From the NCBI GenBank assembly GCA_963827475.1, contig CAWHAZ010000005.1, forward strand, positions 244,259 to 308,258: a stretch of DNA of 64,000 nt. The letters run 5' to 3'. Made by a program: the position numbers. Below are positions 33,301 to 42,300 of this stretch, one piece after another (position 1 is the stretch's first letter; each line of letters opens with the position of its first letter). The DNA is from an uncultured Chloroflexia bacterium (GTDB taxonomy: Bacteria > Chloroflexota > Limnocylindria > QHBO01).

Positions 33301-36300
33301 GATCAGCTCGATCCCTGCCTCGTCCGCCAGGCGGGCGCCGGGGGCGTCGTACGCCGTGACCATCACGATCCGCTCGCCCTTCGGCTTCATGGCCGCCAGC
33401 TCGGGCAGGGAGAAGCGCGGGCGGTCGGTCGGCGTCTCAGTGGTCATCGGTCAGTCCACCTCCAGCGGCATCTTCGTCGGTCAGCAGAACGTTGTCTATC
33501 AGCCGGGTGGGACCGATGCGGACCGCCGCGGCCAGGGTCGGCCCGTCGAACGCGGCGATCGCGACGTAGTCCACCTCGACGCCCTCGGCGCGTGTCGAGG
33601 ATTGCCCGCGCGGCCTCCACCGGGTCGCCGCCGGACCGATGGGCGGCCAGCCCGGCGTCGAGTGCCCGGGGCAGGGCCAGGGCCTGCGCCCGCTCGGCGG
33701 CGGACAGGTAGGCGTTGCGGGACGACAGGGCGAGCCCATCGGTGTCGCGCACCGTGGGCATGACCCGCAGGGTGATCCGTGGCTCGAGGTCGAGGTCGCG
33801 CAGCAGGGCGCGGATGACGGCGACCTGCTGGGCATCCTTGCGCCCGAAGTACACGCGTCGCGGCTCCACCAGGTGGAAGAGCTTGAGGCAGACGGTGGCC
33901 ACGCCCCGGAAGTGGCCCGGGCGCACCGCTCCTTCGAGCGTCTCGGCCAGCGTCCCCGGATCGACCCACGTGTCGAAGCCCGGTGGATAGATCTCCTCCG
34001 GCGGGGGAGCGAACAGGATGTCGACCCCGGCGGCCTCCGCCACGCTCGCATCCCGGGCCTCGTCGCGCGGGTAGGCGCCGAAGTCCTCCGCCGGCCCGAA
34101 CTGGGCGGGGTTCACGAACAGCGACACGGCCACCTTCCGGTTCTCGTCGCGCGCGGCCGCGAAGAGCGAGCGGTGGCCGTCGTGAAACGCGCCCATGGTC
34201 GGCACCAACCCGACGTCGTCGCCGGATTGACCGGCCAGGGCCGTGCGGAGCTCGACTGCGCTGCGCACCACCTCCATCAGGACCGGTCCTCGGCCGCCAC
34301 CGCCCGGGTCGCCTCGGCCAGCGCCCGGTACACCGGCTCGACGTCCGGCGTGCGCTCACCGATCGCGGCGAGGTGGGCCTCCACCGTGCTCCAGTCGCCG
34401 CGCGCGATCGGCCCGGTCAGCTGGAAGCCGTTCTCGATCACCCGCCGCATGAGCGGCACGAGGGCTTCGGGCGGGGCGCCGCTCTCCGCCAGCAGGCGCG
34501 CCGCGACCCGGTACAGGGTGACGAGGAAGTTGGAGGCCATGGCCGCGCCGGCGTGGTAGAGCGCCTTGTCCGCGTCGGCCAGGACGAACGGCTGCAGGCC
34601 GAGGCGCTCGGCCAGCCACTGGGCCGTGGCGCCGGCCTCCGGCGTCTCGAAGGTCAACGCCGCCCATGCGCCCTCGAGCTGCTCCGGCCCGCGATCGGTG
34701 GTCAGCGTCTGGAGCGGATGGAGGCTGAACCGGCGCTCGTGGGGTGACAGCGCCGTGACGGAGGTGGCGCCCGAGACGTGGGCGACCCACGGACCGATCG
34801 GCACTGCCTGCGCGACCTCGCCGATCACCGCATCGGGGACCGCGATCAGGACCAGCTCGGCGGACGGGTCGATCTCCCGCCCGCTGGTGACGGCGAGCCC
34901 GGCGTCCCGCAGCCGCCCGGCGAGCGCGGTGCCGGCTCGACCGCTACCCACGACGTGGACCGATCCGATCACGGGCAGAGTCTAGTGGGCGCCCTCCGCC
35001 CCCGGCGCGGGGTCAGAAGGGCTTGGTGATCATCAGCCAGACGATGGCCGCCAGGCCGATGAGCCCGACCGCGGTGAGCTCCACGGGTCGTGACGAGCCC
35101 AGCAGGGTCTCGAGCTGGCCGGGGTTGGGGGTCGGGTCGATATCCTTCTTGCGGTCGTACGCCCCGCGCAGACCGAGGGCATGGCGCACCTGGTCGAAGT
35201 AGCGCACGCCGCGGATGGACATCCAGGCCCACACGACGAGGAGGATGCCCAGCGATGCCCAGATCCAGCCCTCTCCCCAGTAGTCGCCCACGAACGCGGC
35301 GACGATCCCGGTGAGCGTCACCACGATCAACATCAGGGTGGCGATCCGCACCGCGAACAGCGACAGGTCGAGCAGGGCGCCGAGTCGCACCGGGTCGCGC
35401 TCATCGCGGAGGCGGAGGCTCACGAAGACCGAGACGCCGTGGGCCAGGACGAACGCGAACGCGGACGCGACGTGCAGCCAGAACAGGATCCGGGCGAGGT
35501 CCATCGGTCGGGATGGTACCGATCGCCGGCGGTGGCCGGCGCGGCAGATCGACTACGCCGGCTCCCAGTGGTAGTCGCCGGTGAACAGCCCGTCGACGAT
35601 GCCGATCTGGTAGGCGAGATACAGGCCGAAGGCGATGGACAGGATGCCCATGCTCACCGTGAGCCAGCGGTTGATCCGCTCCGAGCGGGCGCGGCTGACC
35701 AGGAACGGCAGACCGATGACGGTGGTCAGGATGGCCATCCCAGCGGCGACCCCGGCGCAGAAGATGACGAGGTAGGCGAGGGCCTGCTGCGGATCGCTGA
35801 TCGTGGTCAGGACGAGGAGCGCGACCGCGGCTGAGCCGGCCAGGCCGTGGACCAGGCCCACGACCACGGGGCGGCCGAGCTGGTACCAACCGACCGTGTC
35901 GCGCAGGTCGCGGAGGCTGCCCAGCGCCGCATCGGTCCCATGCCCATGGAGGTGCGCATGCTCGTGGCCGTGCATGTCGGCGTCCTCGTGAGCATGCCGG
36001 TGCTCGTGGTCATGGCCGTGCAGCGGTGCCGGCGGGGTGAGCCGTTCGGTGATCCCGCGCAGGGCACCGGTGAGGCTGAGGACGCCCAGCACGATGAGCA
36101 TCACCGCGACGGCCAGCTCCATGGCCAGTCCCAGCGCCGGCGGGATCACGACCCCGAAGACGATGATCGCCATCCCGACCACCAACACGGTGATGCTGTG
36201 GCCGAGGCCCCAGAGCGCACCGATGAGGGTCGAGTGCGCGAAGCGGCGGGTCCGCGACAGGATGGTGGTGACCGCGATCACGTGGTCCGCGTCGGTCGCA

Positions 36301-39300: not shown

Positions 39301-42300
39301 CCTCGATCTACATCCCCACCATGCTCGGCGCGCCCACCTTCCAGATCCTGTTCTTCGCCGCCCTGGGCAGCTACGCGACCGGGATGGATCCGGAGTTCTT
39401 TGCCATCGGCAACGCCGTCCAGGTCTGCGCCATGTCGGGCATCTACGGCATGACCATGGCCGTCGCCAACGAGCGGTGGTTCGGGACCCTGGCGGCCCTG
39501 ATGGCCAGCCCCGCGAATCGGGCCGCGCTGTTCGGCGGGCGGTTCATTCCGTTCATCGTCAACGGGTTCCTCGTCTCGGCCTACGGATTCCTCCTGTGCT
39601 GGATCTTCCTCGGCGTGCGCTTCGATGCCGCGACCCTGGGCGTCATGGTGCTGGCCATGATCGTGACCGCGTTCTCGTGCTCGGCCATCGGCGCGGTCCA
39701 GGGCGGCATCTCTCTGCGCATGAGGGACGGGCTGTTCGGCGCGAACCTGCTCGTCTTCCTGTTCCTGCTGTTCTGCGGGGTGAACATCCCGCTCGAGGCG
39801 CTCCCACCGTGGATGCAGGCCGTGAGCCAGGTGCTGCCCTTCACCCACGGGCTGGAGGCCGTGCGGCAGGCGATCGACGGCGCCACGCTTGCCGAGGTCG
39901 GCAACCTGATCGGGATCGAGTTCCTCATCGGCATGGCCTACGCCATCGCCGCGTTCTTCCTGTTCCGCTGGCTGGAGCGCGGTTCCTACCGGAACGCGAC
40001 CCTCGACGCCCGGTGACCTGCTGAACCGTTCCTAGCCGAGCGTGACGGGGGCGCCGGGCGCCGCCCCCGTCCGTGCCGCGTAGCCGAGGTGCCCGACTAG
40101 GGTCGGCCGCGCAGGATTTCTCGGAGCACTCGGCCCTGGGCCTGCGCGGGATCCGGCACCCCGAGCAGATACGCGAGGGTGGGCGCCAGGTCGATCACCT
40201 CGATTCCGCTGAAGGCGCCTCTCCGGATCTCGTGGCCGCCGGCCAGGAAGGTGGCTCGCATGTTGATGTTCGCCGCCAGGTCCTGGACGTCGGGCACATA
40301 CCCGTGCTGGCCAAAGAACGCCGATCTGGCGATCAACGTGCCCGGCGTCGCCGCATCGAACTGGTACGGCGGGTACGAGAAGACCACGACATCGCCGGTC
40401 CGCATCGGATGCGACATGTCGGTTGTGGTTCCCGGGCCGGTCGGGATGGTGTTGGCGTCTGCCTTGGTGTAGGCCCGATCGATGACCGTCCAAGCCTCCG
40501 GATTGCCGTCGCCGGTCCAGTCGTTGGGATCGGTCAGACCCAGGTACTCGGCCTTGATGGCGGCGACGGTCGCCGCCTCGTCCTCGGCCGCGACCTGCAT
40601 GAAGGGTCCCGCGGGATCACGCCCAGCCAGGTTGAGGTAGATCTGGAGCGCTCCTCCCGCCCAGCAGGCCTTCGCCTTGCCGATGGTCTCGCCGAACGCC
40701 AGCCGGCAGTTCGCGGTCTGCGGGTTAGAGAGCAGCCCAAGGTCGACGAGCACTTCGCTGGCGTCGATGGCGAGGAACTGGGGCGCGAAACCGTGGTCCG
40801 AGCCCACGAACGTCGTCGCGTGCTTGGGCATCAGCGACTGAACCAGGGCCAGGGTGGCATCCGCCCCCTCATAGGCCCGACTGATGAACGCCTCGCGCTG
40901 CGAGACGCGCCCGTCAGGAGTGCCGTTGGATTGGACGTCGTCGTAGGCAGGGTTCGGGTCGCCGCCGGGCAGCGACGGCGAGATGAGGCCCAGGAACTGG
41001 TGCTGGAACTCATCGGTCACCGGATATCCGGCCAGGACCAGGTCCGGCTGGTAGGTCGTGAGGATGTACTCGATCAGCGGGTGGTGACCGGTCTCCCAGT
41101 ACAGCCCCTGCTCGATGTAGGTCTCTTCGCTCACGATCCCAGCCTCGAGGACCGCGAAATCGCCGGCGGTCGAGACCGGGAACTCCTCGGCAACGAAGTC
41201 TGCGAAGTCGCCAACGAAGCCCGGCTCGCCGGGCCAGCCGATCCAGCTGGCGGTGGCCCGCGTAACCGACGTGTGGAACAGCCGGTAGATCGGCGTCCCG
41301 TCTCCCGCGGTGTCCAGCCGCTCGACCTTCATGAGGAAGCCGCCGGTCTCGCCGTTCAGGAACGAGCCGGTGATGGTCACCTTCTGCTCCGCCCACTGCG
41401 CCCTCGGCGAGCTCGGCGACGGTGCCATTGGCGTAGTCCTTGTCGGTATCGAAGGCGACCGTGTCGTATTCGGCCGCGCCACCGGGAGATCCGAACAGGA
41501 TCGCGTTCAGGCCGTAGCGGTCGGGGATGGGCGCGGTGAAGCCGTCCAGGACCCGCATCCTGGTTGAGCGGACGGGGACGTCGCTGGCCGGCAGGTTGGT
41601 CCATCCGTCATCGGCGGCGAGGGTCGTGCCGGCATAAGCCGCGTCCGGTGCCCAGAGGTTGCCGTTGGCGGTATTGCTCAGGCCGGGGTGGTCGAGGTTC
41701 GAGTCGAATTGGAGCCTGAACGACGAGGTGAATGGACCGCTGTCGTCGGGACTGATGTAGTTGGTGACGACGCCGCGTCCTGAGACGAAGCTGCGAAAGT
41801 CGACGGTCGGTCCATTGATGGCGCCGATGCGCCCGCCGGCCCACTCGATCTGGGCCACCTTCAGGCCATCCGCTTCCGCGGACTGGGCGAGCGTCTGGGC
41901 CTGGAGGATGCCAGGCGTGAATGATCCCGTCGAGCTGTCGAACGTGTTGCCGTTGATGTGGAAGGTGTTGTTCGTCGAGCCGTGGACGCCGGGCCAGGCG
42001 CCGGTCGCCATGCTGTACCAACCTGCACCGGTGTTCGGGGGTGCCTGGGTCAGCATCCCGCCGCCAGTCGGCCGATGCCCCCTTCTTCAGGAGGTCGGCG
42101 AAGGTCGGTAGCAGACCGTCAGCGACGTAGCCTGAAATCAGGTCCTGCCGCATCCCATCGGCGGCAAACAGGATCGCGGATGGCGGCTCGGCGGCGGCCG
42201 CCGAGCTGGGTGCGGCCACGTGGTTGGGGACCACAGCACCCATGGCGAGGGCAAGTGCGAGGGGTAGGGCGGCAAGCCGGTGGATTCGTGTGCGGGTTGC

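Follow-up and report, generated by a model that had tools for sequence, protein, structure and literature searches.

Metal choice in the arginase family has been an active question since nickel-dependent guanidine and metformin hydrolases became known, all of them with the classical ligands. In the alpha subunit of metformin hydrolase two nickel ions are held by H158, D183, H185, D187, D276 and D278, while the beta subunits have lost four of the six ligands (PMC11399263); the operon includes a nickel importer (PMC10927577). The guanidinase of N. inopinata binds a single ion each of nickel and manganese through H182, D207, H209, D211, D299 and D301, and the comammox genomes in question lack the HypA/HypB chaperones (PMC11410670). 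On the regulatory side, nickel-loaded Nur of S. coelicolor represses nickel uptake genes together with sodF, the gene of a nickel-independent iron superoxide dismutase (SOD) (PMC2691836; PMC3919588). Here, a 64,000-nucleotide stretch of an uncultured Chloroflexia bacterium (Limnocylindria; contig CAWHAZ010000005.1, positions 244,259–308,258; referred to as the window) was analysed, in which a ureohydrolase gene with a variant metal-ligand motif (GGDDS for GGDHS) stands divergent from a gene for a NicO-family permease and directly in front of an ATP-binding cassette (ABC) exporter operon. Taxon names of the closest database homologues also place the window in Candidatus Limnocylindria (Chloroflexota). 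Enzyme family, importer, regulator and exporter each belong to a type already described. Within the libraries searched, two things have no precedent: that a deep clade of ureohydrolases differs in one first-shell ligand, and that in Limnocylindria its gene stands behind a dedicated Nur-type sensor.

The ureohydrolase gene (36417–37325, + strand, 302 amino acids (aa)) matched Pfam Arginase (PF00491) with 193.6 bits (cut-off 22; E = 6.5e-57) over residues 25–297, and remained under both agmatinase equivalog cut-offs (TIGR01230, 122.5 against 174.3; NF002564, 122.2 against 302). The protein carries the motifs VLGGDDSIPIP, VDAHLDF, AFDLDGLDP and TELAP, and alignment to the agmatinase of D. radiodurans (1WOG, E = 9e-37) placed LGGDDSI opposite LGGDHSV; the initial annotation, which had reported the last three motifs as kept and GGDDSI in place of GGDHS, was thereby borne out by translation and alignment. 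Because GGDDS (residues 118–122; 36768–36782, + strand) aligns with GGDHS of 1WOG, Asp121 is predicted to replace the His that serves as first metal ligand (site A). The predicted ligands are D121 (for His), D143, H145, D147, D230 and D232, with Glu275 of TELAP as catalytic residue, and the six columns read D-D-H-D-D-D rather than the canonical H-D-H-D-D-D (GGDHS, DAHxD, DxDxxDP). An AlphaFold2 model (predicted local distance difference test 88.9, predicted template modelling score 0.90) had the arginase alpha/beta fold, and a Foldseek search with this model returned 1WOG as top fold match (TM-score 0.87, E = 7e-27). The gene is predicted to encode an intact arginase-fold hydrolase of guanidino groups with an all-carboxylate metal site A.

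Of the 120 best homologues, whose identity reaches down to 62%, 119 have GGDDS, the motif search giving nothing in the remaining one, and a contig 97% identical to the window (L081) has the same genes in the same order, so that the motif and the gene set can be attributed neither to chance nor to sequencing error. With one genome per GTDB species, at least 581 relatives were matched by two conserved peptides (including GGDDS[IV]PIP), and these belong to Limnocylindria, Alpha- and Gammaproteobacteria, Armatimonadota, Methylomirabilota and Thermomicrobiales. For comparison of the ligand columns, 1.84 billion representatives at 50% identity were searched and 92 full-length neighbours were aligned with three solved enzymes: 40 sequences read D-D-H-D-D-D (D-type) and 42 were canonical (H-type), 1WOG, GbuA and PAH included. 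D-type sequences formed a largely coherent clade in a neighbour-joining tree, with a few H-type sequences at its base. By these alignments the change from His to Asp appears to be a deep and widespread trait that defines a large subfamily. Database names of its members are generic (‘arginase family protein’ or ‘agmatinase’), and a literature search on GGDDS returned unrelated peptides and no paper on the variant.

For genomic context, 80 loci were retrieved from GTDB genomes with flanks of up to ±8 kb (shorter at contig ends), 60 of Limnocylindria type and 20 from elsewhere, 19 of the latter being D-type. Within 8 kb of the enzyme gene, none of the non-Limnocylindria loci encoded NicO, CbiM or a Fur-like protein. 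When the 67 neighbour genes of these 20 loci were clustered and scanned with Pfam, no family occurred in more than two loci, so genomic context outside Limnocylindria gives no clue to the substrate. On a plasmid of Rhizobium sp. K1/93 (L082; NZ_CP072149.1, 1–8933) the D-type gene (IGGDDSVAIP) lies just 3' of a set of genes whose annotations read formimidoylglutamate deiminase, amino-acid ABC importer, hutH and solA; this neighbourhood, a possible hint to the substrate in the proteobacterial branch, is not conserved. No polyamine gene adjoins the ureohydrolase gene in the window, a tRNA was the sole match when the window and four related loci were scanned with Rfam, with no guanidine or other riboswitch, and no catabolic partner is conserved. 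The nearest characterised enzyme is just 34% identical; an agmatine-like substrate is the nearest guess.

The initial annotation had taken the ligand change, together with the adjacent nickel importer, as a sign of altered, possibly nickel, metal specificity; as an indicator of nickel the change was not supported. Asp is not itself a nickel signature, because metformin hydrolase and guanidinase keep the His, and because the 19 D-type loci outside Limnocylindria have no nickel gene within 8 kb; the co-occurrence of GGDDS with nickel importers, which the annotation had put up for checking, holds for 35 of the 60 Limnocylindria-type loci and fails in those 19 loci. The canonical dinickel site of the GdmH/MefH type has two His and four Asp, and here the first-ligand His is Asp. 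Site A becomes harder when a carboxylate takes the place of an imidazole, and on grounds of coordination chemistry manganese, magnesium or calcium would be favoured over nickel. Motifs of HypA, HypB, UreG, CobW and urease were absent from the window and the 80 loci in a motif scan, so that the hypA/hypB-like metallochaperones for which the annotation had proposed a search were not found there.

Across a spacer of exactly 63 bp (36354–36416, no strand) the ureohydrolase gene faces the NicO-family gene (35553–36353, − strand), which encodes a short NicO/NiCoT-related permease of 266 aa; the divergent arrangement given in the initial annotation, with RHATDADHV and a His-rich loop in the permease, agrees with these coordinates. 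The protein scored 42.9 bits against Pfam NicO (cut-off 27.7) and 34.8 against TIGR00802 (cut-off 333), the latter match being limited to residues 11–70, which contain RHATDADH. This octapeptide (residues 17–24, within MRHATDADHV) conforms to the HX4DH signature, a GLGHS motif is also present, and the His-rich loop (12 His in 50 residues) lies at residues 110–138. Hydropathy indicated about six hydrophobic segments, compared with eight transmembrane segments in a full-length NiCoT. The protein is probably a nickel/cobalt importer. Orthologues (67–89% identity) adjoin the enzyme gene in 29 of the 60 Limnocylindria-type loci.

The gap between NicO and enzyme genes, 63 bp in the window, measures about 560 bp in most Limnocylindria loci and is there filled by a Fur-family gene of about 150 aa, whose best PDB match was S. 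coelicolor Nur (3EYY, 84.6 bits; next Fur/Mur match, 56). With residue roles taken from PMC2691836, the histidines of the nickel site (H70, H72, H126) and of the M-site (H33, H88, H90) were invariant in all 44 GTDB copies, and in 75 of 75 copies when metagenome loci were included. Among the 44 copies H81, E101 and the first Cys pair (C93/C96) were likewise invariant, and the second pair (C133/C136) was Cys wherever the alignment reached (41 and 40 of 44, respectively). The regulator gene (nur) was found directly 5' of the enzyme gene and on the same strand in 43 of the 60 loci; since 42 of 44 copies end at most 115 bp before the enzyme start on that strand, co-transcription of the two genes is predicted.

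Composition of the 60 Limnocylindria-type loci was as follows: nur, NicO and enzyme in 26; nur, CbiMNQO and enzyme in 6; nur and enzyme with neither NicO nor CbiM detected upstream in 11 (at least three of these with a longer NiCoT-like gene, one with ZnuABC and one too short upstream); NicO and enzyme without nur, the window's type, in 3; and the enzyme gene alone in 14, two of which were too short upstream to judge. A second sample was anchored on the regulator and comprised 80 metagenome loci, in which nur and the enzyme gene were preceded by NicO (14 loci), a DUF2269 gene (7) or an upstream flank too short for assignment (4), and in which nur without an enzyme gene was accompanied by CbiM (13), a NiCoT-like gene (7) or ZnuA (3); the remainder had other neighbours or short flanks. 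In a neighbour-joining tree of the regulators, enzyme-linked copies mostly clustered although their importers differ (NicO, CbiM, NiCoT-like, ZnuA or none), which argues that the nur–enzyme pair is the stable core and the importer exchangeable. No new literature from 2024 onward was found on ureohydrolase, nickel and Nur in combination.

Several variants of this arrangement were noted. A second Nur-like group with the same nickel-site residues and the same palindrome (see below) faces CbiM–(PDGLE)–CbiQ–CbiO and has no ureohydrolase gene downstream (L084, 7139–8462; L086, 4909–8456; and the 13 metagenome loci with CbiM, e.g. L090, L091 and L122); that the same regulator type here faces CbiMNQO without the enzyme gene is compatible with an uptake regulator. 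In the position of NicO, three loci encode a NiCoT-like protein of 342–348 aa (L018, 6416–7459; L025, 4904–5944; L070, 6412–7437; all − strand) with a lipoprotein-like N-terminus, GIRHGIDWDH, a His-rich loop and HGVGAETG, for which no Pfam model exceeded its cut-off. The same three loci have a gene for a PD40/SH3 lipoprotein of about 430 aa that overlaps the ureohydrolase stop (L018, 8864–10156, + strand), so that nur, enzyme and lipoprotein genes form a three-gene operon in this subgroup. In four loci (L050, 262–3115, − strand; L121; L161; L163) the Nur-like gene faces a ZnuA/ABC/ABC-3 metal importer, and the metal sensed by every regulator copy is for this reason somewhat doubtful.

A candidate operator was identified 5' of nur as TATTGCAAC-NN-GTTGCAATA, corresponding to the palindrome TTGCAA-N4-TTGCAA. 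Allowing at most two mismatches, the 160 bp 5' of nur contained it in 40 of the 43 loci from GTDB and in 60 of the 80 from metagenomes; none of 123 control regions of equal size did. In loci of the NicO type the palindrome lies between the NicO start and a −10 box, TATACT, which follows after 10–13 bp; in the two CbiM-type loci examined the distance is 26–27 bp. Since TATACT in the NicO-type loci stands 7–8 nucleotides (nt) before the ATG, transcription from the nur promoter may be leaderless. The whole spacer between NicO and nur measures about 65 bp in L013, and by this distance one operator would cover both promoters. The half-sites are those of the S. coelicolor Nur box, tTGCaa-N5-ttGCAA (PMC2691836), and the spacing is one base shorter.

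The window has neither regulator nor operator. A tblastn search gave no nur-like match in the 64 kb, and a search for a relocated copy on the sister contig of 1.23 Mb did not bring it up among the 120 matches listed. The palindrome was absent from the whole window at two mismatches or fewer, and the best match within the 63-bp spacer had six. The spacer does contain ATTGTACCGA (36382–36391), which in alignments matches the left half of the relatives' operator and is taken to be its decayed remnant, and a −10-like TATCCT (36403–36408) located 8 nt before the enzyme ATG, which suggests a leaderless enzyme mRNA. Both remnants recur in L081, L001, L002 and L023; together with the window these make up the subclade whose enzymes are most alike (72–98% identity), and the nur-bearing loci are the more divergent ones. 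Because the nur arrangement is spread over more divergent genomes, its deletion is the parsimonious reading: the nur-bearing arrangement would be ancestral, the window's state derived, and nur control lost at this locus in the window's genome. The nickel link proposed in the initial annotation was supported for this lineage, and more strongly than the annotation could show, by relatives with a Nur-type gene between importer and enzyme; in the window itself regulator and operator are absent.

Downstream, the TGA stop of the ureohydrolase gene (37323–37325) overlaps the GTG start (37322) of a DrrA-like ABC ATPase gene by 4 nt (GTGA), as originally annotated. The ATPase (37322–38368, + strand; Pfam ABC_tran, PF00005; TIGR01188, 291.7 bits) is followed by two paralogous ABC-2 type permeases (38372–39175, + strand, PF01061 47.8 bits; 39183–40016, + strand, PF01061 68.8 bits), a DrrAB-like ABC-2 exporter set in one operon with gene junctions of −4, 3 and 7 bp. 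A functional coupling of enzyme and exporter, a further proposal of the initial annotation, was not supported by the comparison of loci. Only within the subclade of the window does the operon directly adjoin the enzyme gene (gap 0–57 bp in L001–L004, L023 and L081), and orthologous ABC genes lie 1.7–7 kb downstream on the opposite strand in seven other loci, for which reasons the exporter link is read as a recent rearrangement and not as an ancient functional pair.

In Limnocylindria, then, a nur-like gene and the enzyme gene usually form a two-gene operon divergent from a nickel/cobalt importer gene, mostly short NicO and in some loci CbiMNQO or a longer NiCoT-like protein, with the palindrome over the short shared promoter region. 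This unit is proposed to be ancestral. NicO would bring in nickel or cobalt, and the nickel-loaded Nur-like protein would repress both promoters as Nur does in S. coelicolor. The enzyme would originally have been made under nickel scarcity. It might hold manganese in the site built of carboxylates alone, with no more than one softer ion at His145, and would provide a low-nickel version of the ureohydrolase reaction, in which urea is released from a guanidino substrate. Enzymes that are co-repressed with uptake are usually cofactor-independent substitutes, as in the Zur, Fur, Nur and B12-riboswitch regulons. Based on this logic of co-repression, on the harder ligand set and on the lack of nickel context elsewhere in the clade, an enzyme that needs little or no nickel and serves as a backup during nickel shortage is tentatively our first choice, slightly preferred over a nickel-requiring enzyme, and is put forward with less than even confidence.

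Several points weigh against this proposal. Metal use and activity of the D-type are predictions from sequence and a structural model, and repression by the nickel-loaded regulator is deduced from operator position and from the S. coelicolor system, whose box has spacing N5 and not N4. In the retrieved loci, which cover parts of the genomes, no nickel-dependent counterpart enzyme was identified. An importer beside an enzyme gene classically points to a client enzyme, importer specificity being customarily read from the neighbouring metalloenzyme (PMC2667541), and so favours the competing explanation. The absence of HypA/HypB is a weak argument, as the comammox guanidinase binds nickel and manganese in genomes that are also without these chaperones (PMC11410670). 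Finally, with four regulator copies facing a ZnuABC-type importer, the sensed metal is not certain.

The competing explanation holds that the ureohydrolase is itself the client, its binuclear centre requiring nickel or cobalt (perhaps one nickel ion at His145 and manganese at the carboxylate site), with NicO supplying the metal and the Nur-like sensor balancing uptake against demand. It would account for those Limnocylindria-type loci, 35 out of 60, in which the enzyme gene has a nickel/cobalt importer of one of three non-homologous types as its neighbour, for the persistence of NicO beside the enzyme gene after loss of nur (window, L081, L001, L002, L023), and for the precedents of the importer in the metformin hydrolase operon (PMC10927577) and of the chaperone-free nickel–manganese guanidinase of N. 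inopinata. It is a serious competitor, held somewhat less probable than the backup reading: every characterised nickel-dependent member keeps the His, a carboxylate in place of an imidazole disfavours nickel, D-type loci of other phyla are free of nearby nickel genes, hypA/hypB went undetected, and co-repression with uptake would turn off a nickel enzyme just when nickel is plentiful. Somewhat less probable still is an ordinary manganese-dependent, agmatinase-like enzyme whose place behind nur is an accident of lineage or conserved gene order and whose Asp is neutral or of a tuning nature. The closest solved relative is indeed a manganese enzyme (1WOG, 34% identity, TM-score 0.87), D-type members elsewhere stand in assorted catabolic contexts, the class as a whole retains the order panC, DUF2520 gene, DUF2269 gene, NicO, enzyme gene, and both nur and an importer are missing from 12 Limnocylindria-type loci. 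Such an accident is hard to reconcile with a nur–enzyme pair that endures while the upstream importer type changes, with an Asp that is invariant over a deep clade instead of drifting, or with a score under the agmatinase equivalog cut-off.

Both remaining explanations are given little weight. Enzyme and ABC-2 exporter as a functional pair that exports a guanidino compound or a product would fit the 4-nt overlap in the window and the close junctions in its nearest relatives; restriction to one subclade, the distant and opposite placement of the orthologues in seven other loci, lack of the pair in D-type loci of other phyla and the generic nature of DrrAB-like ABC-2 exporters make it improbable. 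A catalytically dead pseudo-enzyme comparable to the metformin hydrolase beta subunits, which the replacement of one canonical ligand could suggest, was rejected as most improbable on account of the other ligands and the catalytic Glu being conserved: five of the six ligands, Glu275 and the segment SSPMRRA are invariant, the replacing residue is itself metal-binding, the beta subunits have lost four ligands and not one, and no partner ureohydrolase gene lies nearby. Taken more broadly, D-D-H-D-D-D sequences might represent a natural metal-swapped branch that in Limnocylindria became the dedicated target of a Nur paralogue, as a nickel-sparing isozyme made once nickel is exhausted or as an enzyme that combines one nickel with one hard ion; we regard this as possible, with considerable reserve.

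Additional features were recorded in the neighbourhood. A gene for a DUF2269 membrane protein (35013–35504, − strand; PF10027, 26.4 bits, slightly under the cut-off of 28) lies 48 bp 3' of NicO on the same strand and is a conserved neighbour; it may be co-transcribed with NicO and, since several loci without NicO have it immediately divergent from nur, may belong to the nur regulon. Compared with L081, panB (32529–33447, − strand) is split into two frames with a break near 32865, and a PF01663 phosphodiesterase-family gene (40100–42303, − strand) into three, with breaks near 41396 and 42075; the splits reflect either indels introduced by long-read assembly or true pseudogenes. Region 14001–24000 has a GC content of 0.61–0.66 (about 0.70 elsewhere) with epimerase-like and glycosyltransferase-like open reading frames and may be an acquired polysaccharide island; a tRNA is located at 24320–24393. 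Scanning 34.9–40.2 kb for promoter and terminator consensus sequences gave nothing exceeding chance.

The D-type clade offers a natural experiment on metal selection by a binuclear site, and its connection with a Nur-type sensor, found in a class that is abundant in soil and freshwater but uncultured, can be tested directly with one enzyme, one regulator and one operator. If the link is true, Nur-type control would reach beyond Actinobacteria and beyond SOD, and a nickel-sparing isozyme, if true, would provide the first example of such a switch besides the SOD pair.

Compared with described systems, the window enzyme resembles the agmatinase group (1WOG; GbuA, 3NIO; GpuA, 3NIP; PAH, 1GQ6) in fold, in length and in the motifs DAHLDF, SSPxRRA, DxDxxDP and the Glu of E(L/V)xP, with 34% identity to 1WOG, and differs from it by Asp as first ligand, by its separate D-type clade and by scoring under the NCBIfam agmatinase cut-off. 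With the nickel-dependent ureohydrolases GdmH (7OI1/7ESR), N. inopinata guanidinase (9FEK) and the metformin/dimethylguanidine hydrolases (8RYI, 8SNF) it shares the fold (TM-score 0.83), and these enzymes are encoded beside nickel-handling genes, as is the Limnocylindria-type enzyme; they have canonical H-D-H-D-D-D ligands and, in most cases, hypA/hypB-like partners, whereas the window enzyme has neither, is just 24–27% identical to them and lacks a guanidine riboswitch at its locus. The 266-aa NicO of the window has the HX4DH signature, GLGHS motif and His-rich loop in common with NiCoT transporters (HoxN/NixA; TC 2.A.52) and with short permeases of the NicO/UreH/RcnA type; NiCoT proteins have eight transmembrane segments (PMC2667541), compared with about six here. 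The closest regulatory parallel is the Nur regulon of S. coelicolor (Nur, nikABCDE/nikMNOQ, sodF), in which half-sites are spaced by 5 bp and not 4; in contrast to the window, with no regulator or operator of its own, the Limnocylindria relatives share with that regulon the nickel-site and M-site residues, the importer neighbours and the TTGCAA half-sites. The likeness extends to sodF, in that a metalloenzyme gene is placed under the same operator as an importer, the enzyme here being a ureohydrolase and not a SOD.

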